A DNA stretch of 64,000 nt from Candidatus Parcubacteria bacterium (GTDB taxonomy: Bacteria > Patescibacteriota > Minisyncoccia > Phycocordibacterales > JAACPR01). Below the pieces are notes generated by a model. It did not search any database and had not been told where the DNA came from. It worked only from the letters and a program-made list of their open reading frames with translations. Numbering within the stretch: position 1 is the first letter of the stretch; every line of letters starts with the position of its first letter. The DNA is taken from contig JBEBBG010000015.1 in the NCBI GenBank assembly GCA_041158505.1, positions 12,642 through 76,641 on the forward strand, read 5' to 3'. A program made the position numbers and the translations under genes. This document shows positions 10,322 to 64,000 of the stretch, in pieces.

Positions 10322-11013
10322 CTAGTTGCCCCACCCTGGCCCTTGAGCCCACCAAACGGTGTAGTACCCGTTTGGGTGTACCGAGCCCGAAGGGTGACGC
10401 ATCGGATACCCCTGGGTCGACGCCATCATCGGCGGTCCCGAGGGACGCGGTGCCGGACGACGGTGCTGCTGCGGCGGTGGCGACTGGCGGCGATACTGCG
10501 GTGGTGCGATCCGGCTGGGAGCCGGAGACCCTCCGCCGTTCACGTAGACAGGTGGTCCGACACGCATGCCGGGAGGCAGCTCACGGACAAATTGCCCGTT
10601 GGGCAGACGGTAGCCCAGCAGTTGCGGATTGGGGCACGGTGGTTCCATCGGCATAGACACACGTCTGCAGTGCGGATCGCCAGGCGTACAGGACGACGTG
10701 CGTCCACCGCCGGTGAAGCGACCATCACGCGAGGCAAGCCCCGCCATGGTCGGCGCCGCGACCACCGTGGTGCGATTGACCACGGTGGTGTTGTGGTTGT
10801 GTTGGCTCCGGTCCACGTTCACGTGGTTGCCGTTACCGTTCACGACGACGTTGACGTCGCCATTGTTGCCACGGTTCGACTGACGGGTCGAGGTCTTCTT
10901 GACCTTCTTGTTCGAGCTGTTGCCCGAGAAGAGGTTCAAAAGACCAGCTTCCACCGGGGCGGGGGCCGCGATGGCAGCGGCGAGGACAAAAACGAGAGGA
11001 ATGAGTTTTTTCA
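10322..11013 (-). CDS. secreted low-complexity Pro/Gly/Asn/Arg-rich protein
   Basis: ATG at 11013 gives MKKLIPLVFVLAAAIAAPAPVEA signal peptide, then NGNGNHVNV... and a PPxxRxxP-rich tail ending YYTVWWAQGPGWGN. The region is about 65% GC; the opposite strand is also open (track ORF 10343..11026) and is treated as a shadow ORF. Confidence 0.5.
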
Positions 11014-11149
11014 TGGAGTGGGATAGATCTATTGGGTTTGCTTTCCAATCAATCGGAGAAGCATTTGCCAGAATATTAACACAAAAACAGTGTTTGTCAA
11101 TACAAACAAACCACAATCCCCCATTCTCCCAAAATCCCAAACACACCGC

Positions 11150-25956: not shown

Positions 25957-26394
25957 CTAAAAACCAAGGTCCACAATGAAATCTCCAGGACCTCCCGTTC
26001 CCAAGATGAGGTTGAGGACATAAATACAAACAAGGGCTATAGCGAGACCGCCAAGTGCTGCTGTAATTCTGTCTTTTCCTTCTGATTTACCAAACAACGA
26101 CTCGGTTCCCATATATTGAACTCCTCCAACTACAAGCATGATGACCGCAAGAATAATGGTAATACTGACAAGCCATTTGAAAAGCTGAGCCAGCATCTGT
26201 GGCAGCGAACCCCCAAAGTTGACACCGCTAATTGACTGGTACCCACCTCCCCCTTGAATGTTCTGTTGCTCAGGGCTGACAGGCGCTTCTTGTGCATGAA
26301 GCACCGCAACTCCTTGCACAAAGAGCAATGATGCAACACAAAACGCGGTCACTCCTTTTTTAAAATACGGTAACATTGCCTGTTTGAAGTTCAT
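25957..26394 (-). CDS. VirB2/TrbC-like pilin candidate
   Basis: 145 aa: about 33-aa signal peptide (cleavage after HAQ/EA), then two hydrophobic helices (LFKWLVSITIILAVIMLVVGGV and ITAALGGLAIALVCIYVLNLIL) separated by a short loop: T4SS pilin architecture. Confidence 0.45.
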   Translation of the reverse strand: MNFKQAMLPYFKKGVTAFCVASLLFVQGVAVLHAQEAPVSPEQQNIQGGGGYQSISGVNFGGSLPQMLAQLFKWLVSITIILAVIMLVVGGVQYMGTESLFGKSEGKDRITAALGGLAIALVCIYVLNLILGTGGPGDFIVDLGF

Positions 26395-27412
26395 TTTCTA
26401 GGGTTTCATCTCCAACAACATCTAGTGCAAAGTTAATCTTAGCATCTTGTAAGATGTTACTCAGGTGGTTGGTCCCCACATTAATTCTTGAAATACCACT
26501 TTTCGCCTTTCCTCTGTTTGTAAAGGTGAGCTTCGATCCAAGCGTTGGTAGATCAATTGGTTTTTCATTCTCTGTCCAGGAATACTCGATTGAGGCATCA
26601 TCACGGGATGATGCAGAAAAGAAGTAAGGAATAGCTACTAAACCAACCTCCTCCCTGTCAAAACGGAATCGTGAAGTAATTGCTCGTTCAAAAAGGTTTC
26701 CAAAAAGAGGGTTGCTCTCATACACGAGCACGGAAGTGTTTTTTGGTGTGACTTCGATTCTTTTCTGTGCTTGCACGCCCCCATTTACCGTCTCCACCAC
26801 TACAGTTACAAAGAAAGGGGTTGGAGCAAGGTTTCCAACAAAACTAATTGTATCTTTTCCAACACCTGATGCTTGCTGAAGTACTTGCCCATTTTTTTCC
26901 CATGTGTAGACAAGTTCTTTTGAAGAGATTTTTGTCCCACCCGTACGGATGTCTGGAATTGCCGCAATTGTCACAAGGGATTGTGGTGTGAAAAGAGACC
27001 TTCCTTTATAGAGCGGGGGTGTATAGGTGTCTGCTTCAACAAGCAAATCAACTGCCCCTGGAGTAAGGGTTATGCTGTCTTCATATGTTTTTCCATTTGA
27101 ACCAACAACACGAACTGAAACTGTTTGTGTTTGCCCAACTGCTGGTGTTGAAAAAATGAAAGTTCGAAGACCCAGCCCTGACGAGGTCTGACCGTCGCTC
27201 GTGTTCCAGGTTATGGTCGAGCGCCCAAGATCGATTGCGTAATTTTCTACTGTTGCTGTCACACTACTGTTTGCTGAGGGGATGCTTGGGCTTAGGGTGG
27301 TTGAAAGAGATCCGGTAAAAATATCTGGAGCAATTTGAGCTTTTGCGGCAGGTACGCCGAGTAAGAACAAAAACGCCAGTATGATCAAATAAAAAGCGGC
27401 GCGCTTAAACAT
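26360..27412 (-). CDS. secreted protein of unknown function (T4SS-like cluster)
   Basis: ATG at 27412 gives MFKRAAFYLIILAFLFLLGVPAAKA signal peptide; Ser/Thr-rich, beta-rich mature part. The track ORF is N-extended to 27448. Confidence 0.5.
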   Translation of the reverse strand: MFKRAAFYLIILAFLFLLGVPAAKAQIAPDIFTGSLSTTLSPSIPSANSSVTATVENYAIDLGRSTITWNTSDGQTSSGLGLRTFIFSTPAVGQTQTVSVRVVGSNGKTYEDSITLTPGAVDLLVEADTYTPPLYKGRSLFTPQSLVTIAAIPDIRTGGTKISSKELVYTWEKNGQVLQQASGVGKDTISFVGNLAPTPFFVTVVVETVNGGVQAQKRIEVTPKNTSVLVYESNPLFGNLFERAITSRFRFDREEVGLVAIPYFFSASSRDDASIEYSWTENEKPIDLPTLGSKLTFTNRGKAKSGISRINVGTNHLSNILQDAKINFALDVVGDETLENELQTGNVTVF

Positions 27413-27482
27413 ACATCCATTGTAGCAGAGATAAAAGCGTGGTCTCAACTAGTTTGCACGCAGGGTGTTCGTGTTTTCAAAA

Positions 27483-28049
27483 CTAGGCAGCTGTTCTGCT
27501 AGAAACGTACGCATCAATGTTTTGATTAAGTCTTGCAACTTTTTTCGGAACAAACCTTTGAACCTCATCCAAAATAAACCAGAAAGCCTTTACTACTTTT
27601 GTGTGGTGATAGTGAACAGAGAGAATCAAAAACGTGTTGGCGGTGATGACGTCGTTAAAAGGGATGGCATCACTGATTGCAAAAAGTACAAGCATGAGCA
27701 TTATTTTTCGAAGGATAATCTTCTGAGTTATCCTGCTTATCGTGCCGCTTTCTTTTCCAAAAAACCAGAAAAAATTTATAACCCAAGTTAGTATTTTAAA
27801 AATCCAGTAAACAACAACACCAACACCTGTTAACGAAAGAAGGGACGCCGCTATAGAGAGGGTGTCAAAAATTGCATTTATTAAAACAATAAGTGTTGGG
27901 AATGGTGGTAGCTTTGGACGGTTTTCTAGAAGTTGAATAGACGCATCCCGATCAATATCAGTCGCAAATGTTTCTTTAAAGCGCCCCTGAAACTCTCTAA
28001 GGTGACGTTGGCTAGAACGAGCGTGGCGCACTATATTTCCGTCAGGCAT
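27483..28049 (-). CDS. polytopic membrane protein (T4SS-like cluster)
   Basis: Three to four TM segments (TLIVLINAIFDTLSIAASLL, VVVYWIFKILTWVINFFWFF, IMLMLVLFAI). ATG at 28049 (MPDGNIV); the track start at 28064 is GTG. Confidence 0.45.
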   Translation of the reverse strand: MPDGNIVRHARSSQRHLREFQGRFKETFATDIDRDASIQLLENRPKLPPFPTLIVLINAIFDTLSIAASLLSLTGVGVVVYWIFKILTWVINFFWFFGKESGTISRITQKIILRKIMLMLVLFAISDAIPFNDVITANTFLILSVHYHHTKVVKAFWFILDEVQRFVPKKVARLNQNIDAYVSSRTAA

Positions 28050-28053
28050 ACCC

Positions 28054-29925
28054 CTATCGTACACCCTTAATCTCTAGTCCACCACGAAGAGCTTCTGGAT
28101 TTGCCATACCACCAGATGCGCGGAGTTCTTCTTTTGCACGCTTAATTTGCAGCACCTGTGATGGGTCTGAGGTGATGATCTGGTCTTCAGTGTATGAGGC
28201 GATAATTTTAATCGCAATGTGCTTGATGCCAGCAAAGAAGATTCCCTCTCCCACTCCAGACTCAAGGAGAAGATACTTCTCTTCCTCGGTGAGGTTAAAG
28301 GTTTGCTGAATCATATCGATTGCAGTCGGTGATTGTTTCAAGAGGAGCTGGATTGATGAGTTGGTGATGATCGGCATACCGTATGGCGATCGAAGGAAGT
28401 CCTCAACGTCTTGGGTAATGGTAGACATACCGAGATAGTATTTTCGTCCTCGTTTTGCAAGCCCAAAGAGGAACGACGCGGTGTCGTCTGATTTCATCAT
28501 CCACCACGCCTCATCGATTACGAGCAGTCGCTTTTTGAGCTCTTTGCGCACAGCATTCCAAATGAAGTGCGTCACAAGGTACATTGCAACCGGCTTAAGT
28601 TCATCTTCCATGTCTCGAAGCGAGAACACGATGAAGCGCTTGTTTACGTCGATGTTTGTTGGTTTGTTGATGAAACCTGCCCAGGTACCACGTGTGTACT
28701 TTGAAAGCTTTTGAGCCATACTCTCCCCTCCCTCCATGCCGGAGAGCACATACTCGAAGTCAGAAAGAAGTGGTGGTTCAATATTTGAGAAATCACTTTC
28801 GGGAGTAATGTCTTTAAGCGCGTACGTTTCAGAAATCGCGCGATCAACGAGCGCATCTTCCTCAGGGGTGAGTCCACCAAGCATGAGTCGGAAAAGACCA
28901 ACAAGGTTCACAATATTTGATCGGAGCACGTCACCTGCAGATTCATCTGGTGTTGGTGGTGCAAGGTCAAACGGGTTGATGTGGTGATCTGAAGTAAGAG
29001 AAATATTGAAGTAGCGCCCGCCTGTTGCTTCCGCAAGGAATTCATATTCACGTTCCGGGTCGATTACAATGACGTCGGTGTCGAGCATCAGGGTGCGCAA
29101 GATCTCGAGCTTTGATGCGTACGATTTACCAGAACCAGCCTTTGCAAAGGTAACTGAGTTGTAGTTTTCAAGACTGAATCGGTCAAAGAGGACGAGCGAG
29201 TTGTTGTGTCGGTTAATACCAAAGAGAATTCCCTTATCCGAGGTAAGGTCAAACGAGATGAATGGAAAGAGGCTCGAGAGTGGTGCTGAGTTGAGCTTTG
29301 AATGCACGCCGAGAAGATCTTGCCCTGTTGGAATAACGGTCTTAAATGCCTCCTCCTGCTGGAAGAGTGCAGGCTTTACGTACACCAACTTTGCTTCGAG
29401 AATCGACTTTACCTCAGAATCGAACTTGTCGAGCTCATCTTTGTTGTCCGCATAGATGCTGATATAGAGACCAACATCAAAGATTTTCTCTTGTGCCTGC
29501 TGGAGGTTGTCACGGAGAATTTCAAGGTCTTGGTATGCGGTGTCGAGTACAGGATCGCGTACAAGCCCCTTCTCTTCTCGGGTGTGAATCTGGCTCTGCA
29601 CTTCGGCTACTTTCTTTTTAAATTGTCGAAGGATGGTTGCGGTATCGATTGGGTGCACAAAAATCGATACATCAAATACTTTGTCGAGGTTGATGATTGG
29701 TGCAAACCACGAGTCTGAAAGGAAGCGTGGGTACGAGATAACGAAGAACGTGCGCACCATTTTGTCACCAAGGTTGATGTCACGAGGGCTCATCTTGAGC
29801 GCTGAAGGCGCAATCACGTCTTGTAGCTCAAGCACGCCCGCCTCGTAAATTTCTTGTGGAAGAAATGACGTAATGTCAGGTGTTTTTGGAGCTTCCTTTT
29901 TCTTTAGAAAATCAAAGAGGGCCAT
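28054..29925 (-). CDS. T4SS ATPase VirB4/TrbE/PrgJ family, ATPase portion
   Basis: VirB4 N-region RTFFVISYP...FVHPID; Walker A FAKAGSGKSYA; Walker B LLVIDEAWWM; C-terminal TrbE-type domain. Starts at an ATG one codon after the in-frame TAG that ends the upstream ORF. Confidence 0.8.
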   Translation of the reverse strand: MALFDFLKKKEAPKTPDITSFLPQEIYEAGVLELQDVIAPSALKMSPRDINLGDKMVRTFFVISYPRFLSDSWFAPIINLDKVFDVSIFVHPIDTATILRQFKKKVAEVQSQIHTREEKGLVRDPVLDTAYQDLEILRDNLQQAQEKIFDVGLYISIYADNKDELDKFDSEVKSILEAKLVYVKPALFQQEEAFKTVIPTGQDLLGVHSKLNSAPLSSLFPFISFDLTSDKGILFGINRHNNSLVLFDRFSLENYNSVTFAKAGSGKSYASKLEILRTLMLDTDVIVIDPEREYEFLAEATGGRYFNISLTSDHHINPFDLAPPTPDESAGDVLRSNIVNLVGLFRLMLGGLTPEEDALVDRAISETYALKDITPESDFSNIEPPLLSDFEYVLSGMEGGESMAQKLSKYTRGTWAGFINKPTNIDVNKRFIVFSLRDMEDELKPVAMYLVTHFIWNAVRKELKKRLLVIDEAWWMMKSDDTASFLFGLAKRGRKYYLGMSTITQDVEDFLRSPYGMPIITNSSIQLLLKQSPTAIDMIQQTFNLTEEEKYLLLESGVGEGIFFAGIKHIAIKIIASYTEDQIITSDPSQVLQIKRAKEELRASGGMANPEALRGGLEIKGVR

Positions 29926-29928
29926 ATG

Positions 29929-30570
29929 CTAATTGTGTGGTAATGGTTTCTCAACATCACCTGGATTAAAGAGTCGGTAAAAGATTTCAATCACCTCTTC
30001 GGTGCCAAGTTGCACTGCGCGAATACCGCTGCGGACGATTCCAGACCGCACAACGGCGATACGCTGTTCAAGCTGGCTGCGTGCTTCCTCAAAATCTTCA
30101 GTCTTCATGTTTGCGTCTTTTTTGCCACCAAACGGATTGCTTACCTTTTTGCCGCGAACATCAATCGTTGGTGGTGTGTACGGAACTGTAATGTAAAAGG
30201 TCTTGGTCATAATGTTGGTGCGCTCAGTAAACGCTTGGATGAATCCAATGTACTCTTTGATTTGCACGCGCATGAGGTCGTTAATTTGCTCTCGCTCGCG
30301 AGCTTCAAGCATTGCTACGTATGGACGAATGTCGAGACGTCTCGACTGGATGAAGATTTGAACCGAGAAATTGAGCGAGTTGAGAAACTGTTGGAATTGG
30401 AAAATGATTGCACTCTGCTCCTCTTCTGATTTGAGCGCAAAGTTGATTGAAGAGGTCATGAGGATTGCGCGCATTGAACCATCCTTGAGCACAAGAATAC
30501 CGTCACGCACTTCACGCACGGGGACAAAGTCCTGTGTTGTTTTTGAGTTTGCTGCTGCCATATCGTGCAT
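29929..30570 (-). CDS. VirB4-family N-terminal domain protein; same frame as the ATPase ORF, separated by a single TAG
   Basis: VPVREVRDGILVLKDGSMRAILMTSSINFALKSEEEQSAIIFQFQQFLNS matches the conserved N-terminus of Gram-positive VirB4-like ATPases; frame continuity with 28054..29925 checked by coordinates. Confidence 0.5.
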   Translation of the reverse strand: MHDMAAANSKTTQDFVPVREVRDGILVLKDGSMRAILMTSSINFALKSEEEQSAIIFQFQQFLNSLNFSVQIFIQSRRLDIRPYVAMLEAREREQINDLMRVQIKEYIGFIQAFTERTNIMTKTFYITVPYTPPTIDVRGKKVSNPFGGKKDANMKTEDFEEARSQLEQRIAVVRSGIVRSGIRAVQLGTEEVIEIFYRLFNPGDVEKPLPHN

Positions 30571-30605
30571 TCATTATACACGACTGTACGAAACGAAAAC
30601 GTGGG

Positions 30606-31043
30606 TTACTGACGTGTGCGCGGATCAACGTCCTGGAGTGTTTGCAACGTCTCGTGAATATCGAGTCCCCACGATAAATCTTTGAGCTTACTGTTTGTTA
30701 CTTTTGGCACCTCTTGCGTAACGTACTGAATGACTTCGGCCGCTTTCTTCTCAGGTGTTTTTTCCCGTTTTTTCCAGAGGTATAACTTTGGTGAAAAGAT
30801 GAAACGAAACGCTGTTTCGAGGACCACAACAAGCGGCCGATTGTTTACTTGGTAAAAGGCAAAGCCAAAAAAGAGGAGTACTACTGGTAAGCCAATGACA
30901 ATTGCTAGAACCTTGGGCATGGTAGTCCAAAAGATGAAGGCGAACGCCAACCCCGCAGCCGAGTACAGGAACTGTTTAAGGGTGAGTGGTCCAAAAATCT
31001 TATCTTCTACTTCAAGGAATTGTGGTACTTGGTATTTTGCCAT
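30606..31043 (-). CDS. PrgI-family (VirB3-like) small membrane protein
   Basis: MAKYQVPQFLEVEDKIFGPLTLKQFLYSAAG then two TM helices: the PrgI-family signature (VPxDLxxEDKIFGxLTLRQ) and the canonical position immediately upstream of VirB4. Confidence 0.6.
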   Translation of the reverse strand: MAKYQVPQFLEVEDKIFGPLTLKQFLYSAAGLAFAFIFWTTMPKVLAIVIGLPVVLLFFGFAFYQVNNRPLVVVLETAFRFIFSPKLYLWKKREKTPEKKAAEVIQYVTQEVPKVTNSKLKDLSWGLDIHETLQTLQDVDPRTRQ

Positions 31044-50072: not shown

Positions 50073-50996
50073 TCACGTTGCGGGGCAGAGCTTCAGTAGT
50101 CGAACTGAGATCAGCTTGTAGCTGAGAACACCCAGTCCGGCACCAATCAAGCCACCGCTAAGGATAAGCAGGACATAGCCCGCTGTTGTCGTGCCGTTTC
50201 CGCCGAGCCAGAAGGCAATGAGACCACCAATTGTGCCGTCGAGAGCGCAGAGTACCCGCTCGCGGCAGTGGATCTGCTTGAAAAGGTACCAGGTGAACCG
50301 GAAAAGTCCGACTCCGAGCACTCTGGGGAAATCCCAGAAGATAGCACGTGGTGTTCTGTAGAGCACGATCAATGCCCCGTACACCATCCACCGGTAGGCG
50401 TTTCCGTAGCCAAGCTTCTCTTCGGAGTAGCCCTCTTTGAGCAGCTGCTCCCGATGTTGCAGTTCTTGCCAATCCGGGGGCGATCCGTCTTCTATGCCGT
50501 ACAGTCTTGCGGGAGGCCACCAGTATTTTTTCTGATGATTGCTACCAATCCACGCCAAAACAACAAATGGTAGCGACAGGACTCCAGTTAGGATCACGAA
50601 GATGCAGAATGCTTTTGCCGCCTGTATCTTCTGAGAGATACCTTCTTCTGCAAGTCCTAGAAACTGAGTAAACATGTTGTTTACCACTTCAAGAACCGCG
50701 AGTGCAAGTACTGCACCTGCGTACATGAAGGGATGTTTCCGGCAGAAGTAGCGGACCACACCCCTGAAGAATACGACAATGCTGTTGATCACGGCCATGG
50801 GAGCTCGTATGCCCGCAAAATGGAGCGCACGCGGAACGATTGTGAGTGCCTGACGGCTCTCGTAACCGAAGTACCCGCCAGCGATGCCGGCGAGGGTGGC
50901 GAGCCACAGGAACTGTGGTGCGACAGAGGCTGCAACAGCAGCGCACAGGGCGCCGCCGATGAAGCATGCAAGGGTGATCTGATAGATCGTTTTCAT
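50073..50996 (-). CDS. polytopic membrane protein of unknown function (GC-rich gene)
   Basis: 307 aa, multiple TM helices, Trp/Tyr-rich loops; noticeably higher GC than its neighbours. Confidence 0.5.
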   Translation of the reverse strand: MKTIYQITLACFIGGALCAAVAASVAPQFLWLATLAGIAGGYFGYESRQALTIVPRALHFAGIRAPMAVINSIVVFFRGVVRYFCRKHPFMYAGAVLALAVLEVVNNMFTQFLGLAEEGISQKIQAAKAFCIFVILTGVLSLPFVVLAWIGSNHQKKYWWPPARLYGIEDGSPPDWQELQHREQLLKEGYSEEKLGYGNAYRWMVYGALIVLYRTPRAIFWDFPRVLGVGLFRFTWYLFKQIHCRERVLCALDGTIGGLIAFWLGGNGTTTAGYVLLILSGGLIGAGLGVLSYKLISVRLLKLCPAT

Positions 50997-51119
50997 TGAT
51001 TTTGTAGGGTGTGGTGAACGGTTGGGTTCGTTTTTAAATTACAGTAAAATAATGATTTTGTCAATTAATTTCGATGTGAGATTTAGGACTGTCTCTGTGC
51101 TATAATATTGTGCGACACT

Positions 51120-52046
51120 ATGGCAGCCAATCAAATTCAGGATTTAAAGCAGCAATTTCTTGAGTATATTGAAATTGAGCGTGGTCGCAGCCTCAAAACC
51201 GTTGAAAACTACGACCGGTACCTAACCCGCTTCCTTGGTCACATAAAAGCAACAAAACCTGCCGATATTACCGAGCAGGCCGTCAGGGAGTTCCGTTTGT
51301 GGCTCAACCGCCAGCCGGGCACAAAGGACACCATGAAGCGTCGGACCCAAAACTACTACCTCATTGCATTGCGCTCATTCCTTAAATTCTTGGCGAAACG
51401 CGGTGTTACCTCCCTGCCACCAGAGCGCATTGAGCTTGCAAAGACAGAAGCGCGCGAGCTCGACCTGATTTCAACAGATGAGCTGCTCAGGCTTTTGAAC
51501 GCTCCAGACACCACCACTCTTCGCGGCCTTCGCGATAAGGCGATGCTTGAACTTTTCTTTTCTACTGGTCTTCGTGTCTCGGAACTTGCGTCACTCCCCC
51601 GAGATCTTGATATTGAGCGTGATGAATTCTCGATTCGCGGTAAGGGAGACAAGGTTCGCGTGGTGTTTGTGTCTGATGAAGCACGACAAGCGGTGAAGGC
51701 GTACCTCGCAAAGCGTGATGATATGGACGATGCGCTGTTTGCACAGGTGCCAAGTAAGGCGGGTAAAAATGTGCTCGCAAAGCGCGGTTCACTTCGCATC
51801 ACACCACGTTCAATTGAGCGTATTGTGCGCCACTACGCCACGAAGTCCGGTATTTCAAAGAAGGTAACGCCACACGTTATTCGGCACAGCTTTGCAACAG
51901 ACCTGCTCTCAAATGGTGCTGATTTGCGTTCAGTGCAAGCGCTCCTTGGTCATGCAAATATCACAACTACGCAAGTCTACACACACGTTACTGACAAGCA
52001 TTTGCGCGACATTCACAAGAATTTCCACGGCAAGCGCCGCAAATAG
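51120..52046 (+). CDS. tyrosine recombinase XerC/XerD type
   Basis: Catalytic-domain motifs HVIRHSFATDLL...LLGHANITTTQVYTHV; ATG at 51120 preceded by an extended -10 TGcTATAAT at 51098-51106. Confidence 0.8.
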   Translation: MAANQIQDLKQQFLEYIEIERGRSLKTVENYDRYLTRFLGHIKATKPADITEQAVREFRLWLNRQPGTKDTMKRRTQNYYLIALRSFLKFLAKRGVTSLPPERIELAKTEARELDLISTDELLRLLNAPDTTTLRGLRDKAMLELFFSTGLRVSELASLPRDLDIERDEFSIRGKGDKVRVVFVSDEARQAVKAYLAKRDDMDDALFAQVPSKAGKNVLAKRGSLRITPRSIERIVRHYATKSGISKKVTPHVIRHSFATDLLSNGADLRSVQALLGHANITTTQVYTHVTDKHLRDIHKNFHGKRRK

Positions 52047-52132: not shown

Positions 52133-52651
52133 TCAGCTGCCGAGGGCAACTTGCTTTCCGTCTGGTGCAGATTCCTTGGCTTCTTTGATAGAGCTAAGTG
52201 ATCCATCCATAAGGGCGGCGAGTCGTCCTCGCGGTCTCGTCCGGTATTGCTCCAAGACGTTGATGGGGGCGCTGGTTGGCCTATCACTTTCGCTTTTTGG
52301 CTTGAGTGCTTCGCGCTTCCCCCTCATTTCTGCTGGCGTCACGGAGTCTCCTTTACAGGCGACACAGACCAGAATCGTCAGAGGCGATTCCATGTCGATG
52401 TGCCCAATGAAGGCTCCGTTTGTACTGAATGCCCGATCGGTGAGCATTTTTTTCATCTGCTCGAAACTTCCGTCGTTGCCGAACGTCAGTCTCAGACATT
52501 GGCACTTCCGAGAGCTCGGGTCTCTCTTCTGTGCTGAGTTGATGGTAGCGATTGCTGCGACGATTTTCGCCGTAGCTGTTTCCACCGTTTCGGTCTGAAT
52601 TTCGTGTTGTGCGGGTGCCCCATTGGGGGCGGGATCGTCAGTCAATTTCAT
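52133..52651 (-). CDS. hypothetical protein with two Cys pairs (CQC...CVAC)
   Basis: ATG at 52651 preceded by a perfect SD (ttGGAGGaaagaaaATG on the minus strand); 172 aa; GC-rich. Confidence 0.55.
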   Translation of the reverse strand: MKLTDDPAPNGAPAQHEIQTETVETATAKIVAAIATINSAQKRDPSSRKCQCLRLTFGNDGSFEQMKKMLTDRAFSTNGAFIGHIDMESPLTILVCVACKGDSVTPAEMRGKREALKPKSESDRPTSAPINVLEQYRTRPRGRLAALMDGSLSSIKEAKESAPDGKQVALGS

Positions 52652-52769
52652 TTTCTTTCCTCCAATTCAATTACGTTGTGCCCTGACAAAGAGCTCTCGA
52701 AGCTACTGTACCCGTTGGGCTTTAAAAAAGCAAGAAAGCGTGGTGGAGTTTTGTGCTATGCTATCTGCC

Positions 52770-53537
52770 ATGAAGCTTATCTCATGGAACGTGAACGGCA
52801 TTCGAGCATGGTCAAAAAAAGAGCAGACGCTCGATTGGGTGCTACGCCAAAAACCAGACTTCTTTTGTCTTCAGGAAACAAAAGCAGAACCATCACAACT
52901 TGCTCAGCACATAACGGAGATTCCCGGCTACACCGCCTTCTTTGAGTACTCAAAAGAGCGAAAGGGGTACAGCGGTGTCGCAATCTACACAAAACATGAG
53001 CCTGATCGCGTCGATGAGGGCCTTGGGGTACCACGTCTTGATACGCAAGGGCGCTTCCTTGCACTCTTTTTTGATAAGCTGGTGGTTATCAACTGCTACT
53101 TCCCCAACGGCGGTATGGGTGGTGATGCGTTCACGTATAAGCTCGATTACTACGAAGCCTTCCTGAAGTACATCACAAAGCTTAAAAAGGCCGGCTACAG
53201 CATTATTTTTGCTGGAGATGTGAATGTGGCGCACCACGAGATAGATATCGCACGTCCGAAGGAAAACAAAGATAGCATCGGCTTCTTGCCCGTTGAGCGA
53301 GATTGGCTCACGTGTGTCGAACAGGCTGGGTTTGTGGATACGTGGCGTAGCAAGCATCCTGAAACGGTTCGGTATAGTTGGTGGGACATGAAGACGCGCG
53401 CACGCGAACGAAACGTTGGGTGGCGCATTGATTATATCTTTGTGTCAGACGATTTGGTGCCGAGTATTAAGAAGGTTGATATACACAATGACGTGTATGG
53501 CAGCGATCACTGCCCTGTCTCGCTTGAGATGAAGTAA
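52770..53537 (+). CDS. xth: exodeoxyribonuclease III (AP endonuclease)
   Basis: MKLISWNVNGIRA...FFCLQETKA...YSWWD...SDHCPVSLE: ExoIII/EEP family hallmarks. Confidence 0.85.
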   Translation: MKLISWNVNGIRAWSKKEQTLDWVLRQKPDFFCLQETKAEPSQLAQHITEIPGYTAFFEYSKERKGYSGVAIYTKHEPDRVDEGLGVPRLDTQGRFLALFFDKLVVINCYFPNGGMGGDAFTYKLDYYEAFLKYITKLKKAGYSIIFAGDVNVAHHEIDIARPKENKDSIGFLPVERDWLTCVEQAGFVDTWRSKHPETVRYSWWDMKTRARERNVGWRIDYIFVSDDLVPSIKKVDIHNDVYGSDHCPVSLEMK

Positions 53538-59040: not shown

Positions 59041-59173
59041 ACGATGGGGAATTCTAGTGCTACTATGACGCTACACCACAAGGTTATATATAGTCATTTT
59101 TCTCTATATACGTGCTGTGTCGGTGTACCCATATTCACCCGTGTGCCGTTTACACGGGGTGTAAAGAATGAAA

Positions 59174-59246
59174 CGGGGCGTGGTGTAACGGCTAACATGC
59201 TCGGTTTGGGACCGAGTGACTCCGGGTTCGAATCCCGGCGCCCCGA
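59174..59246 (+). tRNA. tRNA-Pro (anticodon TGG)
   Basis: Acceptor cggggcg/cgccccg, anticodon loop uuUGGga, T-arm ccgggttcgaatcccgg. Confidence 0.8.
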
Positions 59247-59253
59247 CTACAAT

Positions 59254-60126
59254 ATGAAACTGGTAACGCATGAAGGAAGCTTCCATCTTGACGACCTCTT
59301 TGCTGTTGCGACTATTACGCTCCTCTATCCAGATATTGAGATTGTACGGACAAGAGACGCAAGCAAGTTTGGGGACGCTGATTTTGTTGTAGATGTTGGG
59401 GATATTTGTGATCCTGCGACAAACCGATTTGATCATCACCAGCATGGTGGGGCAGGAGTTCGTGAGAACGGTGTGCCATACGCGAGTTTTGGTCTGGTCT
59501 GGAAAAAGTACGGCAAAATGGTGTCTGGGGAAGAGCGAATCGCTGATTTGGTAGATAAAAAGATGGTGCAGCCGATTGATGCAGCTGATAACGGCTTCAA
59601 TATGTACCGGGAAACAAAACCTGGCCTTTCACCTTACTTGCTCGACAACGCATTCAAGGCGCTGACGCCAACGTGGCGAGATCCAGAGACGGTTGATGAT
59701 ACGTTTGCCAATTTGCTTCCACTGGCACAAGAGATTTTGCGTCGAGAGATTAAGAAGGCCCAGTATTTCTTTGAGGACACGGAAATTGTGAAGGAGGCGT
59801 ACCGTGTTGCTGAGGATAAGCGAATTATTGTCCTTGAGCATCCAATGGCGTGGAAATCGGTGATTTCGAGGAAGCGTGAGCCAGTATATGTGATTCATCC
59901 AAATCAGATGACTGGGGAGTGGATTGTGGCATGTGTACGAAAGTCTCCACAGTCACACGAAAACCGAAAGCTGCTACCAAAGGCGTGGGCAGGGAAGCGT
60001 GGTAAGGAGTTAGAGCAAGCAACTGGTGTGCAGGGCGCTGAAGCTTGCCACAATAAGCGCTTCATTGCGACAGCCTGGACACGTGAGGCCGCGATTAAGC
60101 TGGCACAGTTGGCGCTGCAGGCGTAA
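59254..60126 (+). CDS. MYG1/UPF0160-family metal-dependent hydrolase (paralog 1, canonical)
   Basis: ATG at 59254; LVTHEGSFHLDDLFAVATITLLYPDIEIVRTRD...VVDVGDICDPATNRFDHHQHG reproduces the MYG1 N-terminal metal-site motifs. The track ORF 59044..60126 reads through tRNA-Pro and is N-extended. Confidence 0.75.
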   Translation: MKLVTHEGSFHLDDLFAVATITLLYPDIEIVRTRDASKFGDADFVVDVGDICDPATNRFDHHQHGGAGVRENGVPYASFGLVWKKYGKMVSGEERIADLVDKKMVQPIDAADNGFNMYRETKPGLSPYLLDNAFKALTPTWRDPETVDDTFANLLPLAQEILRREIKKAQYFFEDTEIVKEAYRVAEDKRIIVLEHPMAWKSVISRKREPVYVIHPNQMTGEWIVACVRKSPQSHENRKLLPKAWAGKRGKELEQATGVQGAEACHNKRFIATAWTREAAIKLAQLALQA

Positions 60127-60251
60127 AAACTGCAACACCTGCGTTGGGGGGGTATTTCTTCTGGGTGCTAGTGTGGTTTGACTTTTTTATTTTTTGTTGT
60201 ATTCTTGCAACCAAACAGAAAGGGCCGTTACAACAAAACGGCTTTCGGAAC

Positions 60252-61268
60252 ATGACACAAACAAAAAAAGATCCCCGAAAGGTTCGGTGGACTTTGGTAC
60301 ATCCGAGCTTTCACTTCGATGAAGCTTTGGCGGTGTACATTCTCACTCTTTTTGGGAAGGTGCTTTTCCCGGGTATCGAAGAGGCGAGAATTGTCTTCAA
60401 GCTGCGCGATATCGAGGGAATCACCCCCGAGCAGATGAGGTGGAGTGCGGATCGCTTGCTTAACGAGCTTGGTGTGCTTTGCGTCGGCTGTCTTGGTGAG
60501 CGTGGTGCCCTCTTTGATGAGCACGGTGAAAAGCGTGCTGACGGCAAAGCTGCCTGCATGCTTGTCGCCGAGTATCTCGGAGTTGCCAAGCAACACGAAA
60601 TTCGGGATTTGCTCTGCTTTGTTGATCAGTTTGACCGGCAAGGTCATGCTCGCGAGCGTGCTGTGCTCAGAAAGGTCGACCGGTATTCTGTCGGCTTGAC
60701 GGAGTATGATATCCGCGCGCTGCTGCGCAATCAACATCGCAACGGCAGAGACGACGTGTATCTGATGCAGTGGATGCAGAGTGTGATTGATGCCTTTGTT
60801 GAGCGAACGCGCCGATTGATCAAATTGCACGGACTTGTCAAAGGGTGCAACAAAAAGCGCTCGGTCACTGGCGATGGCACGGAGATTCAAGTCTGGCTCA
60901 TTGAGACGGATGAGCACGATGCCCCCACGGTTGCACAGCAACATGGTGCGGGGGTTGTTATCGTCCGGCGCCCGACTGGTCACGCTGTTGTGGTCAACAA
61001 GAGCAAGCGAGCAGATATGTGTGCGGTTGCTCGAGAACTTCGTCAACGTGAAGCAGATGCACAAGGGTGGAGTGTTGTTGAGGGTGATACTCTCGATGGA
61101 GAACACTCTGCTTCGGTTCCCAATTGGGATTTTAACCCAACGATGGGGCACATCTTCAATACTGACGAGCAGAAGGTGTACGACGTGGTGCCGACGGCAC
61201 TCTCCGACGAAGAACTGCTGGACATGGTTGCTGGTCACCTTCGAATTCTCGAGAAGACCAGCCTTTGA
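60252..61268 (+). CDS. divergent MYG1-like protein (paralog 2)
   Basis: ATG at 60252; WTLVHPSFHFDEALAVYILTLFGKVLFPGIEEARIVF...VGCLGERGALFDEHGE parallels the MYG1 motif order; the gene looks noticeably GC-rich by eye. Confidence 0.55.
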   Translation: MTQTKKDPRKVRWTLVHPSFHFDEALAVYILTLFGKVLFPGIEEARIVFKLRDIEGITPEQMRWSADRLLNELGVLCVGCLGERGALFDEHGEKRADGKAACMLVAEYLGVAKQHEIRDLLCFVDQFDRQGHARERAVLRKVDRYSVGLTEYDIRALLRNQHRNGRDDVYLMQWMQSVIDAFVERTRRLIKLHGLVKGCNKKRSVTGDGTEIQVWLIETDEHDAPTVAQQHGAGVVIVRRPTGHAVVVNKSKRADMCAVARELRQREADAQGWSVVEGDTLDGEHSASVPNWDFNPTMGHIFNTDEQKVYDVVPTALSDEELLDMVAGHLRILEKTSL

Positions 61269-61339
61269 GGTTTTGGTTTTTGCCGAAACCGTTTTCTTTT
61301 AAGGTTTAGATGGGGTTTTTATGGGTCTAGTTAGGTAAG

Positions 61340-61368
61340 TTGATTTTTATATAATTATGTGTTATAAT
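61340..61368 (+). promoter_or_regulatory. near-consensus sigma70-type promoter (TTGATT-17-TATAAT with TGn) for the GC-rich OB-fold gene
   Basis: -35 ttgatt at 61340-61345, 17-bp spacer, tgtTATAAT at 61360-61368; GGAGG SD at 61416-61420, 8 nt before the ATG at 61429. Confidence 0.55.
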
Positions 61369-61428
61369 AAAAAAAGAGGGTAAGCAAGACGCGAGCCCGA
61401 ACCTAGTCTCAATCAGGAGGTACTAAAA

Positions 61429-62373
61429 ATGAGCAAGCGCTCTTTGAAATCGCAAAGGGGTCGCCAAAATGGCGGCCAAAACAATCAACCAAACCGAACC
61501 ACCAACACGGAGACTCTCGTCCCCTTCAAGGGAATTGAGGTCTACGTCGAGGCGCGAGGCCGTTCAATCGGCTTCGAGCAGACGGGAGAAAAGAGAAAGC
61601 TTCAGTACGGAGTCCTTCCGGACTTTGGCCACGAGCAAATCAAGCTTGTCGCCCGAATCGACCCCGAATGCGCCGCCCTCAAGGCGGGACGACTGGTCGT
61701 CTTCAACCGCCGCCAGGACCAACGTCTTGATGTGCACATGTCCAGTGCCAACAAGAGCGGACAGATTGTGCACCGCCAAGCGGTGCGTATCTCTCGCTCG
61801 AATGGTGGAACGAAGGTGTCGGTGGACCACACCACCAACAACATCTACGTTGCCTTCCTCAGCTCGGCTGGGGTCTGGATCAAAGCAGTCACGCTGGTTC
61901 GGCAGTCTGGCACGTTCTACGTGCTGATGCAGGACCAGTACACCGTCGAATCGTTCTTGAACGATGACGGCAACGTCACCCTTCCTGGCTTTTTCAGGAT
62001 TCACGGTGGGCTGCCCGACTTCGCTCGGTTGCCTGTTGTCCGCGACTTCTTCGGGGGTCTCGCCGCAGAAGAAAGAGCTACCCTTGAGCATGAGAGGAAG
62101 TATGTCCCCACAGACTACCACTTCTCCGACCTTGGGGAGAACGAACTCTACGTCAAGTTGTGGACCTTACGCCGTAACAACGGCGTTGGAATCCTCAAAG
62201 ATGGAACCCAGGTGCGGCTCTTCTGGGCAGACATTCGGGGTGAAGGTCCGCATGCATTGCGGACGGGACAGCGAGTGCGTTTCGAGCGGCTGGACAGGAT
62301 CTCGGATGAAGCCCGTGCCGCTGCGGGAACGCAGCTGTATTACGATGCTCGTGGCCTCACGGTCATCGAGTAA
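61429..62373 (+). CDS. GC-rich protein with basic N-terminal tail and C-terminal cold-shock/OB-fold-like domain
   Basis: N-terminus MSKRSLKSQRGRQNGGQNNQPNRTTN; C-terminal NGVGILKDGTQVRLFWADIRGEGPHALRTGQRVRFERLD resembles the CSD pattern GFGFI..DG..VFVH.S.I...G...L.EGQ.V.FE; the gene looks distinctly GC-richer than its neighbours. Confidence 0.55.
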   Translation: MSKRSLKSQRGRQNGGQNNQPNRTTNTETLVPFKGIEVYVEARGRSIGFEQTGEKRKLQYGVLPDFGHEQIKLVARIDPECAALKAGRLVVFNRRQDQRLDVHMSSANKSGQIVHRQAVRISRSNGGTKVSVDHTTNNIYVAFLSSAGVWIKAVTLVRQSGTFYVLMQDQYTVESFLNDDGNVTLPGFFRIHGGLPDFARLPVVRDFFGGLAAEERATLEHERKYVPTDYHFSDLGENELYVKLWTLRRNNGVGILKDGTQVRLFWADIRGEGPHALRTGQRVRFERLDRISDEARAAAGTQLYYDARGLTVIE

Positions 62374-62402
62374 ACCGGTTGATTGCCAAAACCTTGCGAA
62401 TT

Positions 62403-62441
62403 CCGCCCCCGAGTTTCGGCTCGTGGGGCGGTGTTTCTTTT
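62403..62441 (+). terminator. Rho-independent terminator after the OB-fold gene
   Basis: ccgcccc-(gagtttcggctcg)-tggggcgg then tgtttcttttt. Confidence 0.7.
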
Positions 62442-62471
62442 TAGGAGGAGAAAAAAAGTTGCGATACAATA

Positions 62472-63446
62472 TTGGGTATGCCAATCACCTCAATTCTCCT
62501 ACCAACACGTCCACAAGTAGATACGCTCGTTGGACTTTTTTTGCTTAAACAGTTTGGTGAGGCGCAGTATCCAGGTATTAAAGATGCGACTGTAATTTTT
62601 AACCAGCAGGACTTAGAATCAAAAGATTGGGTAGCACATGAAACAGAAGGACGTTTGCTTGTTGATATGGGAGGCGGACCACTCGATCACCACGTGCAGG
62701 GTGAGCAGGTTTGTTTGTCGCAAATCGTCGCGAAGCTTTTAGGGCAAGAGAAAAACAAAGCAATTACTAAGCTTGTAGAGCTTGCGCGTCGAGATGATGT
62801 AGATGGGCAAGGAACGCTTTCAGAAGATGCAATTGATCGAGCATTTGGTATGAGTGGTCTCGTCGTTTCCCTTAATCGTGTGTACCATGATCAGCCAAAC
62901 AAGGTGTACGAGTTAGTGACGCCACTGATTGAAGCTCATTACAAAGAACAGGTAAAACGCACAGAAGAACTGCCTAAACTTTTTAATACATTGCTTGCAT
63001 CTGGTGCCGCTCAAAAAGCAACTGCAACACATCGAGGCAAAAAAGTTCAGATTGCGTTGTACTCATCTGATGAACCAAGCCTTGCGAGTTACTTACGCTC
63101 ATTTGCGGGTGGGAATTTTGATGTTCTGATTCAATGTAAAGAAAGTGGACACGTAAACATTCTGACGCACACAAATAGGCGTCCAGATTTGCGCTCGCTT
63201 GCAGTTATAATTCGAAAAGCAGAGCTCATGCTTTCAGGAGGGGGAGACGGCATTAGTGCAGAACAGCTTGCCGCACCTGGGCGACTTGATACGGTGCCGC
63301 AGTGGTACTTTGATCTAGCCACCAATTCACTTCAAAATGGTGGTGTTACGCCTGGAAAAATTCCGAAAACCGCTATTCCTAAAGAAAAATTACTTAATTT
63401 AGTGAAAATTGGACTCGAGGAAAGTATGTGGAAGCCCGTTTCGTAG
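62472..63446 (+). CDS. divergent MYG1-like protein (paralog 3; N-terminal His/Asp-Glu motif lost)
   Basis: TTG at 62472 (ATG at 62478); LLKQFGEAQYPGIKDATVIF and LLVDMGGGPLDHHVQGE align with paralog 2 FGKVLFPGIEEARIVF / LGERGALFDEHGE, but the HPSFHFDE block is replaced by LPTRPQVDT. Confidence 0.5.
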   Translation: MGMPITSILLPTRPQVDTLVGLFLLKQFGEAQYPGIKDATVIFNQQDLESKDWVAHETEGRLLVDMGGGPLDHHVQGEQVCLSQIVAKLLGQEKNKAITKLVELARRDDVDGQGTLSEDAIDRAFGMSGLVVSLNRVYHDQPNKVYELVTPLIEAHYKEQVKRTEELPKLFNTLLASGAAQKATATHRGKKVQIALYSSDEPSLASYLRSFAGGNFDVLIQCKESGHVNILTHTNRRPDLRSLAVIIRKAELMLSGGGDGISAEQLAAPGRLDTVPQWYFDLATNSLQNGGVTPGKIPKTAIPKEKLLNLVKIGLEESMWKPVS

Positions 63447-63471
63447 TATTTCTTTTTGCTATACTTACCCT

Positions 63472-63858
63472 GTGGAAACAAAACGATTTACACGTGTGGT
63501 AGAGCACTTTACCTGTGAGCACTGTGGTGCTGCAAATGATGGTAATGGGTACACAAATCACTGCCACCAGTGTCTGTGGTCTAAACACGTGGACATCAAT
63601 CCTGGTGATAGAGCCGCAACCTGTGGTGGCCTTATGAAGCCAACGGCAATTGAAAACACCAGTGGCGAGTACGTCCTGACGCACACCTGTGAGCGTTGCA
63701 AGCATCAAAAACGAAACAAAGTTGCAGCAAATGATAACTTTGACACTGTTGTGTCACTCGCGGTGTCACTCGCGGATGATTACGCTACAGGTTCCGTAAC
63801 AAGAGCTCCGTTAGGCGCGGCGCAGCAGATGACGCAAACGATGCAGCCTGCGATGTAA
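63472..63858 (+). CDS. RNHCP-domain-like zinc-ribbon protein
   Basis: FTCEHCGAANDGNGYTNHCHQCLWSKHVDINPGDRAATCGGLMKP...HTCERCKH: Cys pairs and a NHC(H/P)xCLWSxHVD block recalled from the RNHCP domain. No ATG; GTG at 63472 is in frame with the track ORF 63409 (TTG). Confidence 0.45.
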   Translation: METKRFTRVVEHFTCEHCGAANDGNGYTNHCHQCLWSKHVDINPGDRAATCGGLMKPTAIENTSGEYVLTHTCERCKHQKRNKVAANDNFDTVVSLAVSLADDYATGSVTRAPLGAAQQMTQTMQPAM

Positions 63859-64000
63859 GGTCGCCACCTAGTATTTCTTTTAGTGTTTTGCCCGTTGCAT
63901 CTTTAATATCTCGGTTGATGTAGTCGAGGGTGAGGGCGTTGATGACGTACCCGCCTGGAGTGCTGCCGGTATTTGTGGTGGCAATGATACCAATGAGCTT
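63796..64000 (-). CDS. C-terminal fragment of an unidentified minus-strand gene running off the window end
   Basis: Open reverse frame from 64000 down to a TAG at about 63796 (…KLIGIIATTNTGSTPGGYVINALTLDYINRDIKDATGKTLKEILGGDLT…); it would overlap the RNHCP ORF 3' end by about 60 nt. Confidence 0.25.

Follow-up and report, generated by a model that had tools for sequence, protein, structure and literature searches.

We conclude, with a probability of roughly one half, that a 314-residue protein (p314) encoded on the chromosome of a Candidatus Parcubacteria (Paceibacterota) bacterium is the product of a resident CPR gene and may serve as an RNA-binding or chaperone partner of neighbouring enzymes that act on RNA ends. 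The gene and its upstream neighbour, par2, occupy positions 60252-62441 of the 64,000-nucleotide stretch of DNA that we analysed (the window); p314, its expression signals and the neighbouring tRNA-Pro, MYG1, par2, par3 and RNHCP genes all lie on the plus strand. The initial annotation had described this segment as a GC-rich, self-contained and possibly horizontally acquired insertion in an array of MYG1 paralogs.

p314 combines a beta domain with a divergent cold-shock domain

The p314 reading frame (61429-62373, stop codon included) is a compositional outlier and encodes a basic protein (pI 9.7). An AF2 model built with a 50-sequence alignment has a pLDDT of 90.7 and a pTM of 0.85; a 4-sequence alignment gave a pLDDT of 56.7, which was too poor for use. 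Codons 1-30 (61429-61518) specify a disordered tail rich in Q, N, G, K and R (pLDDT 52-65), which, with a pI of 12.0 and 6 K+R against 1 D+E, bears out the basic N-terminal tail proposed earlier. In P0002/P0003 this tail is extended and RGG/QN-rich; distant family members lack it. It is followed by an all-beta domain (codons 31-180; 61519-61968) with 14 strands at pLDDT above 90, for which Pfam gave no match across 50 members, and PDB and BFVD searches no credible match outside the cold-shock domain (CSD). N137, Q159, F163 and Q168 are nearly invariant. Codons 181-235 (61969-62133) form short helices (DSSP helices 186-217) and a linker, and codons 236-314 (62134-62370) a divergent CSD with an OB fold.

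The C-terminal OB-fold block, suspected from the letters alone, is found in the model as a five-stranded antiparallel beta-barrel superposable on CspA/CspB, the arrangement that defines a cold-shock OB fold of about 65-70 residues. The 50-sequence family profile matches cold-shock proteins in the PDB at E 2.3e-9, and 12 of the 50 members match Pfam CSD (best 2.1e-9). The window protein by itself gave no match in a Pfam scan, falling below the CSD threshold; the 4-sequence profile reaches E 0.08 against the CSD at best, and a BLASTP comparison of the last 80 residues of p314 with B. subtilis CspB produced no alignment. Homology to the CSD is visible only at the level of profiles or structure. 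The RNP1 sequence is NGVGIL (versus KGFGFI), in which neither Phe is retained, and that of RNP2 is VRLFW (versus VFVHF), with aromatics kept at two positions; W245 is equivalent to Trp8 of CspB, and the family consensus for RNP1/RNP2 is rgvGvgi / vrvhW. Because both motifs are degenerate in the window clade, RNA binding by p314 is plausible but unproven.

Compared to the bacterial cold-shock proteins CspA/CspB (PF00313), p314 is far longer (314 versus approximately 67 residues), carries its CSD at the C-terminus, preceded by a basic tail and a beta domain of 150 residues, and has replaced the RNP1 aromatics. Classic Csps are acidic, whereas p314 is basic. Multidomain CSD proteins (Lin28, CRHSP-24, Y-box proteins, and Unr) are among its top structural matches and likewise join a CSD to basic or RGG-like disordered tails and extra domains. 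However, these proteins are eukaryotic, their zinc knuckles and additional CSDs are unrelated to the p314 beta domain, and no homology to p314 was detected outside the CSD.

Scans of p314, par2, and par3 against Pfam, NCBIfam, PHROG, and PADLOC returned no significant match. Of 1.84 billion searched, 51 representatives belong to the p314 family at E ≤ 1e-3; every named member comes from Parcubacteria, Paceibacterota or Andersenbacteria and is annotated as a "hypothetical protein". Just 4 proteins came back when the 50-sequence alignment was used for a profile word-index search, and a GTDB scan with alignment A1 found no relative. A 250-residue CSD protein near a par gene in locus L008 was rejected as a member, as its CSD is N-terminal. 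The family layout is an optional basic tail, a beta domain of approximately 150 residues, a short helical linker and a C-terminal CSD. By these searches the family is small, undescribed and restricted to CPR bacteria.

Orthologues of p314 are 71, 47, 50, and 40% identical to it, and a dN/dS of 0.15-0.30 indicates purifying selection. Synonymous sites are saturated, the closest orthologue pair already having a dS of at least 1.2. Its dN is the highest at the locus (0.197, compared to 0.017 for MYG1), corresponding to approximately 10 times faster evolution. An RNA-binding protein that is abundant and belongs to the core would not usually evolve so fast, which counts against the partner model.

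Conserved signals indicate a separate transcription unit

The gene is set off from par2 by a terminator-like hairpin with a T run (61269-61300; 9 pairs plus T tract in the scan), which folds at -12.5 kcal/mol (z -3.05) and is conserved in sequence in L001. Downstream lies the sigma-70-type promoter TTGATT-17-TATAAT (61340-61368), whose extended -10 carries TG at 61360-61361; with 10 of 12 matches it is the best site in 6 kb. The -35 element and TGTGTTATAAT are invariant across four loci (the window and L001-L003) while the nearby spacer diverges. The promoter in L006 is near-identical (TTGCAT-17-TGTTATAAT), and similar extended -10 promoters can be read upstream of the distant members in L012, L013, and L014. 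A Shine-Dalgarno sequence (AGGAGG, 61415-61420) is located 8 nt 5' of the ATG within a 5' UTR of approximately 55 nt, and the block CCTAGTCTCAATCAGGAGGTA is conserved in L001, L003, and L006. On the 3' side, an intrinsic terminator (62398-62443) consists of a GC-rich hairpin (62398-62436, core 62403-62431) followed by GUGUUUCUUUUU. The simple terminator scanner did not list this hairpin; a 77-nt stretch that includes it (62374-62450) has a folding energy of -29.8 kcal/mol (z -2.4), and an equivalent hairpin with a U tract is present 3' of the orthologue in six loci (L001, L002, L003, L006, L010, and L005).

The promoter, ribosome-binding site, terminator and self-contained organisation claimed for p314 from its sequence thus all hold up, and together the conserved signals indicate that p314 is transcribed alone, as a monocistronic unit. 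They also suggest that it is probably highly expressed. The next gene, par3, has a -10-like TACAAT 9 nt 5' of its ATG, apparently part of a promoter of its own; at this distance the mRNA would be leaderless or have a very short leader. Given the strong terminator between them, p314 and par3 would not be obligatorily co-expressed, a separation that also weighs against the partner model.

par2 and par3 form a family separate from MYG1

On its 5' side, the locus has a conserved backbone in which tRNA-Pro(UGG) (59174-59247; ARAGORN and Rfam) directly precedes MYG1, a position shared with L001, L006, and L015-L017. The MYG1 gene itself (59254-60126) encodes a true MYG1/UPF0160 DHH-type exonuclease (Pfam PF03690, 2.6e-67; PDB MYG1 24ah, 4.8e-34), with orthologues 97, 89, and 88% identical and a dN/dS of 0.013-0.05. 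It lies outside the GC-rich segment, 1.1 kb upstream. MYG1 is a 3'-5' exonuclease that prefers RNA, and its hallmarks are a catalytic DHH motif and a conserved C-terminal histidine (PMC6582341).

The flanking genes par2 (60252-61268, 338 residues) and par3 (62478-63446, 322 residues) are paralogs of each other (25% identical, E 9e-18) and belong to a CPR-wide family that we call par. The par2 protein is a divergent, fast-evolving member, with orthologues 76-56% identical, an N-terminal HxxFHxDE motif and FDEH where DHH is expected; its positional counterpart in L015 has 367 residues (E 1e-6). The par3 protein is conserved and near-universal in many CPR lineages, being 40-47% identical to members across Patescibacteria, with invariant motifs D / LLDxGGG / FDHH / RRDD / SGH. 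Residues D70-H71-H72 and H225 are invariant, and their equivalence to the DHH motif and C-terminal His residues of MYG1 is putative.

The likeness of par2 and par3 to MYG1 consists of collinear N-terminal motifs, (H)xxD...DxGG...FD(H/E)H, and an hhalign alignment limited to 53-58 N-terminal columns (E 0.0024 and 0.037). Unlike MYG1, par2 has DEH in place of DHH, and the motif-I histidines are missing from par3; neither protein matches PF03690 at E ≤ 1, none of 60 par-family members has a Pfam match to MYG1 or DHH, and a 60-sequence par profile found no MYG1 chain at E ≤ 10 in the PDB, although such chains are present there. On motif order and the E value of 0.0024, par3 has a putative affinity to DHH proteins, and this basis at the sequence level is a further point against the partner model. 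By sequence, par2 and par3 form a separate, unnamed CPR-wide family that resembles MYG1 weakly. The label "MYG1-like" for par2 is backed by no family model, and the supposed MYG1 array contains a single MYG1 gene.

On the 3' side, an RNHCP zinc-ribbon-domain gene (63472-63858; Pfam PF12647, 4.7e-26) belongs to the downstream backbone and follows par3 in L001-L003, L018 and four metagenome loci. Three tRNA genes, a CCA-adding enzyme gene and a UPF0102/YraN nuclease-like gene are found within the same locus.

The GC excess is synonymous and shared across the family

The segment 60252-62441 is indeed GC-richer than its surroundings, at 53.9% compared to a window mean of 47.9%. This places it at the 97.7th percentile of equal-length windows, with only the 8.7-11 kb region being richer. 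The p314 gene reaches 57.4% GC, and its GC3 of 0.689 tops all 61 open reading frames of the window (mean 0.467, sd 0.075); par2, MYG1, and par3 have values of 0.56, 0.495, and 0.348. Since GC1 and GC2 are ordinary, the excess is synonymous, with both C3 and G3 raised. It is not confined to this genome: in 10 of 12 loci no neighbouring gene has a higher GC3 than the p314-family gene. In a further 16 loci, of which one (L023) is a CSD-only match, its GC3 is above that of par3 in 15, so that an excess over neighbours is seen in about 25 independent lineages or loci carrying the family.

A gene or genomic island taken up recently from a GC-richer foreign donor would fit the compositional outlier, and tRNA genes are close by. 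The gene content between MYG1 and RNHCP also varies. In L015-L017, where MYG1 is 78-80% identical, p314 and par3 are absent from the interval, which instead holds a par2-like gene alone (L015 and L017) or a TruD-like gene (L016); because such relatives exist, we regard the slot as variable. In its atypical composition, nearby tRNA genes and variable content, the slot resembles a tRNA-associated genomic island. However, the unit missing from those relatives (p314 and par3) differs from the GC-rich unit (par2 and p314), and five related Parcubacteria/Paceibacterota contigs (L001-L004 and L006) share the order MYG1-par2-p314-par3. The slot also differs from such islands in having no integrase, with 9 kb separating it from the closest recombinase gene (51108-52046). 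No att-like or direct repeats were found flanking the segment, and tblastn searches of phages and plasmids gave no homologue. The dS values are saturated and yet the GC3 excess persists in orthologues and in distant members with other gene neighbourhoods, which argues that the composition is not a transient relic of a donor. Recent foreign origin is, in our view, hardly credible and is largely refuted, and what survives of the proposed insertion is the variable content of the slot.

We instead consider the GC excess of the p314 family to be a maintained synonymous-site trait, as the recurrence across loci indicates, and no relic of recent foreign origin. One candidate cause is selection acting on expression or on properties of the mRNA. 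The pattern is not shared by rpsO of the window (GC3 0.49) or HU of L006 (0.36), so expression-linked codon selection is not demonstrated, and translational codon bias as a simple cause is unconfirmed. A 336-residue antisense reading frame across par2 (60228-61238) was rejected as a source of the composition, its frame being broken in orthologues; it is a shadow ORF arising from the rarity of TTA/CTA/TCA codons.

Recurrent neighbours and possible functions of p314

A recurrent neighbour of the family is par3, which lies directly 3' of the p314-family gene in 8 of 12 loci, including loci with members only approximately 22% identical (L005, L010, and L018). Conversely, a full-length p314-family member adjoins par3 in 15 of 80 sampled par3 loci, in three arrangements (upstream, downstream and divergent) and with members only 20% identical; MYG1 and RNHCP adjoin par3 in 5 and 4 of the 80. 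The four loci without par3, which are a point against the partner model, comprise three near clpB and one with neither gene.

Long forms make up 26 of the 120 par proteins listed. When L006 and L018 are added to these 26, the two HxT/S motifs that mark 2H phosphoesterases are present in 24 of 28 long-form N-termini, some of which are recognised as PF02834/PF13563. Such LigT-type domains are fused N-terminally to about a fifth of par3-type proteins, and a 2H phosphoesterase gene adjoins a par3-type gene in L008. These fusions tie the partner of p314 to RNA 2',3'-cyclic-phosphate or 2'-5' chemistry. The par3 of the window is a short form without this domain, and none of the window ORFs was found to encode a 2H protein.

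Our preferred model is that p314 would bind single-stranded RNA via its CSD and basic surfaces, and would then work, in high abundance, as RNA-binding or chaperone partner of the enzymes encoded around it: par3 (DHH-motif, often fused to 2H domains), the 3'-5' exoribonuclease MYG1 and the RNHCP zinc-ribbon protein. In a bolder version, which we put forward only tentatively, p314 would be the RNA-recognition subunit of an unrecognised CPR-specific system for RNA end healing or turnover, with par3 as a cryptic DHH-like phosphoesterase alongside MYG1 and RNHCP.

It is also conceivable, if rather unlikely, that the adjacency to par3 is meaningless and that p314 is a stand-alone stress-type RNA chaperone, a CPR analogue of cold-shock and Y-box proteins that is strongly transcribed and acts globally on mRNA or rRNA. 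The genuine CSD fits this reading, as do the gene's own strong promoter, 5' UTR (50-90 nt) and terminator, the presence of three distant members within three genes of clpB, and HtrA-like Trypsin_2 genes near family members in several loci. In groundwater ultra-small prokaryotes, moreover, csp genes rank with the most highly expressed genes, an observation that the authors ascribe to sample preservation (PMC9938205). Without a functional tie, however, adjacency to par3 in three arrangements, among members 20% identical, is hard to explain, and the additional conserved beta domain of 150 residues implies a function beyond simple RNA melting.

Cold-shock domains bind ssDNA too, and with a basic protein, a UPF0102/YraN nuclease-like gene at the locus and HU genes near family members in L006 and L018, p314 could act in replication or repair as an ssDNA-binding or nucleoid-associated protein. 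We judge this improbable, as the recurrent partners are RNA enzymes and RNAs (2H fusions, MYG1, CCA-adding enzyme, tRNAs, and RNase Y). A component of a conflict system, either anti-phage defence or toxin-antitoxin, might be expected to show the highest dN of its locus and to sit in a variable interval, and yeast MYG1 is reported to be linked to antiviral attenuation (PMC10089162). This reading is very improbable: a PADLOC scan of six locus proteins gave nothing beyond E 0.05, p314 is under purifying selection, and the near-universal presence of par3 in many CPR lineages is untypical for defence genes.

Discussion

A methodological caution follows from this locus: a GC3 spike in a single gene next to a strong promoter resembled a foreign island, yet it is a conserved family trait. 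If the end-healing system is real, it would replace RNA-processing factors missing from reduced CPR genomes, and the raised GC3 of the whole family would stem from selection for expression far above that of the catalytic partners. Our literature searches on RNHCP, and on 2H phosphoesterases with CPR, found nothing relevant.

Many genes in the small genomes of CPR/Patescibacteria lack annotation, and RNA processing and recycling in these organisms are poorly known. The analysis defines two unnamed families: the p314 family, which joins a beta domain to a CSD, has no Pfam model and comprises about 50 clusters at 50% identity, and the widespread DHH-motif par family. Their recurrence beside MYG1 and RNHCP offers a concrete, testable gene set for RNA metabolism in CPR bacteria.

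Compositional bias of the p314 gene

The segment at 60252-62441 had been read in the initial annotation as a GC-rich, possibly foreign island inserted into an array of MYG1 paralogs. Windowed statistics bear out the GC enrichment (53.9% against 47.9% for the window, the 97.7th percentile of equal-length windows), and gene-by-gene values place the excess mainly in the p314 ORF (61429-62373, + strand). This ORF has 57.4% GC and a GC3 of 0.689, the top value among 61 ORFs with a mean of 0.467 (sd 0.075); C3 and G3 are both elevated, while GC1 (0.616) and GC2 (0.416) are ordinary. GC3 is slightly up in the upstream gene par2 (60252-61268, + strand; 0.56) and not raised in the flanking genes MYG1 (0.495) and par3 (62478-63446, + strand; 0.348). 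Neither rpsO in the window (0.49) nor HU in the syntenic locus L006 (0.36) has the p314-type pattern; HU, RNase Y and ClpP in the distant locus L018 are intermediate. The window holds a second compositional outlier, a 274-aa ORF (10322-11146, - strand; 60% GC, GC3 0.67) without a Pfam match, flanked by tsaE and a gene for a T2SSE-type ATPase.

Recent horizontal acquisition is not supported. The order UPF0102, tRNA-Pro, MYG1, par2, p314, par3 is kept in five related contigs (L001, L002, L003/L004 and L006), usually with an RNHCP gene next after par3. Even the closest orthologue pair is saturated at synonymous sites (dS 1.2-1.3), and despite this p314 has the neighbourhood's maximal GC3 (0.62-0.70) in every syntenic locus. 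Distant family members in unrelated contexts are GC3-rich too: 0.72 versus 0.34-0.49 in L010, 0.55 versus 0.29-0.40 in L012, 0.64 versus 0.20 for par3 in L018, and 0.67 in L019. In another 16 metagenome loci, one of them (L023) a match to the cold-shock domain only, the family gene exceeds the adjacent par3 in 15. Since the excess recurs both in syntenic loci with saturated dS and in distant members, it is a maintained property of the p314 gene family. No att-like repeats surround the segment, and searches gave no phage or plasmid homologues and no defence-system matches.

One part of the earlier reading holds, in that the slot itself is variable, but the variable unit is not the GC-rich one. 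In the nearest GTDB genomes (L015-L017; MYG1 78-80% identical to that of the window), p314 and par3 are missing between MYG1 and RNHCP, the interval being occupied by a 367-aa par2-like gene only (L015, L017) or by a TruD-like gene on the opposite strand (L016); the GC-rich unit is par2 plus p314. The L016 gene (7559-8821, - strand), which stands in place of the par genes, has a product of 420 aa in which a GxKD motif of TruD type was read by eye. Elsewhere in the window, a 307-aa ORF without a Pfam match (50073-50996, - strand; GC3 0.61) adjoins a tyrosine recombinase gene (51108-52046, + strand; Phage_integrase, 2.9e-41), followed by an Exo_endo_phos gene at 52623-53537. Compared with the flagged segment, this region is possibly the stronger candidate for mobile or foreign DNA. 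Mid-window (25957-31043, - strand), T4SS_pilin and PrgI-family genes point to a cluster for type IV secretion or a pilus-like structure.

p314 is a variant cold-shock-domain protein

A word-index search among 5.8 billion clusters returned only three p314 homologues, while an exhaustive HMMER profile search of 1.84 billion proteins gave 51 representatives at E<=1e-3, most of them between 260 and 340 aa long and sharing roughly 20% identity with p314. Named members belong to Candidatus Parcubacteria, Paceibacterota or Andersenbacteria, and all are annotated 'hypothetical protein'. In a public Candidatus Parcubacteria MAG, a 77-kb contig of which matches the window, par2 is RL150_619 and the RL150_621 annotation is limited to the last 148 aa of p314; the full 314 aa are present in a JGI entry (P0177) of the same 90% cluster.

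The p314 sequence alone matched no family library scanned, and BLASTP against CspB gave nothing. AlphaFold with a 50-sequence alignment produced a confident model (pLDDT 90.7, pTM 0.85) with a disordered tail of pI 12 (residues 1-30), an all-beta domain (approximately 31-180), short helices (186-217) and a small barrel (approximately 236-314). For the beta domain, neither PDB nor BFVD gave a credible match, and Pfam has no model. The cold-shock motifs in the p314 clade are NGVGIL (RNP1) and VRLFW (RNP2), so that the canonical aromatic surface is kept only in part. p314 is a new architectural variant of cold-shock-domain protein, from an unnamed CPR family. Together with the basic character of the whole protein (pI 9.7), the domain supports the earlier reading of p314 as a putative nucleic-acid-binding protein.

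The sequence features named in that reading are all present, the expression signals among them: a TTGATT-17-TATAAT promoter with TGn (61340-61368, + strand), the top-scoring site in 6 kb; an AGGAGG Shine-Dalgarno 8 nt upstream of the ATG; and, 3' of the stop codon, a GC-rich hairpin followed by a U tract (62398-62436, + strand), within a 77-nt region (62374-62450) that folds at -29.8 kcal/mol. p314 is in this sense a self-contained unit. The -35 and extended -10 are invariant in orthologous spacers that otherwise diverge, and the terminator recurs in another six loci, some of them distant. par2 too is followed by a terminator, though a weaker one.

One MYG1 and a separate par family

The supposed MYG1 array contains a single true MYG1, at 59254-60126 (Pfam 2.6e-67; PDB MYG1 4.8e-34). 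A longer, 360-aa mechanical ORF (59044-60126, + strand) was rejected as it reads through tRNA-Pro (59174-59247); the true start is the ATG at 59254, in agreement with the orthologues. MYG1 stands out for its conservation: it is 97/89/88% identical to its L001/L003/L006 counterparts (dN/dS 0.013-0.05, synonymous sites saturated), and the CCA-adding enzyme (90/80%) is under much weaker constraint.

par2 and par3 are mutual paralogs (25% identity, E 9e-18) in a separate unnamed family with more than 185 matches, all from Patescibacteria where named. par3, which shares 40-47% identity with most members, represents the mainstream type, and par2 a divergent, clade-specific copy. D15, D70-H71-H72, D106-D107 and H225 are invariant, and the motif order D / LLDxGGG / FDHH / RRDDxxG / SGH might distantly recall DHH phosphoesterases. 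None of 60 members matches Pfam MYG1 or DHH, the family profile found no MYG1 or DHH chain in PDB, and hhalign aligned par with MYG1 over approximately 55 N-terminal columns only (E 0.0024-0.037). About a fifth of listed members (26/120) are long forms of approximately 500 aa. Adding those of L006 (10152-11645) and L018 (1250-2779) gives 28 long-form N-termini, 24 of which carry two HxT/S motifs approximately 90 residues apart; several match PF02834/PF13563 (2H phosphoesterases), a domain that Pfam detects in some only. In L008, a separate LigT-like gene lies next to a par gene in divergent orientation. A 336-aa antisense ORF spanning par2 (60228-61238, - strand) was discarded as a shadow ORF, being broken in orthologues and caused by an absence of TTA/CTA/TCA codons. 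The short motif TAGTATTTCTTTT occurs just 3' of both the par3 and RNHCP stop codons (63442-63458 and 63867-63883).

Linkage to par3 and a proposed role

par3 lies immediately downstream of the p314-family gene in 8 of 12 distinct loci, including contexts where members are only approximately 22% identical: PK, family gene, par3 in L005 and L010, and family gene, long par3, RNHCP in L018. Among 80 par3 loci in JGI metagenomes, a full-length family member is adjacent in 15 (upstream in 8, downstream in 6, divergent with MYG1 between in 1), MYG1 in 5, and RNHCP is next in 4. In a rare family, survival of the adjacency through rearrangement is good evidence that the genes are functionally tied. Even so, p314 and par3 form separate transcription units, with the p314 terminator between them. 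A -10-like box (TACAAT or TATAAT) lies 9-10 nt upstream of the par3 ATG in the window (62463-62480), L001, L003, L005, L006 and L010, with no Shine-Dalgarno between box and start in any of these six, which suggests that par3 mRNA is leaderless.

Most likely, p314 would be an abundant RNA-binding or chaperone protein. Single-stranded RNA would be held by the cold-shock domain, the basic tail and the basic surface of the protein as a whole, and the conserved beta domain would contact par3 or some other partner. p314 would act alongside enzymes of RNA ends, namely par3 (alone or together with a 2H cyclic phosphodiesterase), MYG1, which is a 3'-5' exonuclease preferring RNA (PMC6582341), and RNHCP. 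The main rival is that p314 is a stand-alone stress RNA chaperone. Three observations weigh against the partner model: the degenerate RNP1; the fast evolution of p314 (dN 0.197 versus 0.017 for MYG1; dN/dS 0.15-0.30); and clpB, instead of par3, beside some relatives (within three genes in L012, L013 and L014, with neither gene in one further locus). A Trypsin_2 (HtrA-like) gene adjoins the L014 member and, in L001, L003 and L006, lies close to the window-type cluster. The partner model, which we prefer, has the recurrent par3 linkage on its side. At the window locus the gene for the CCA-adding enzyme and three tRNA genes are present as well, and p314 sits in a recurrent gene neighbourhood, uncharacterised and probably devoted to RNA metabolism.
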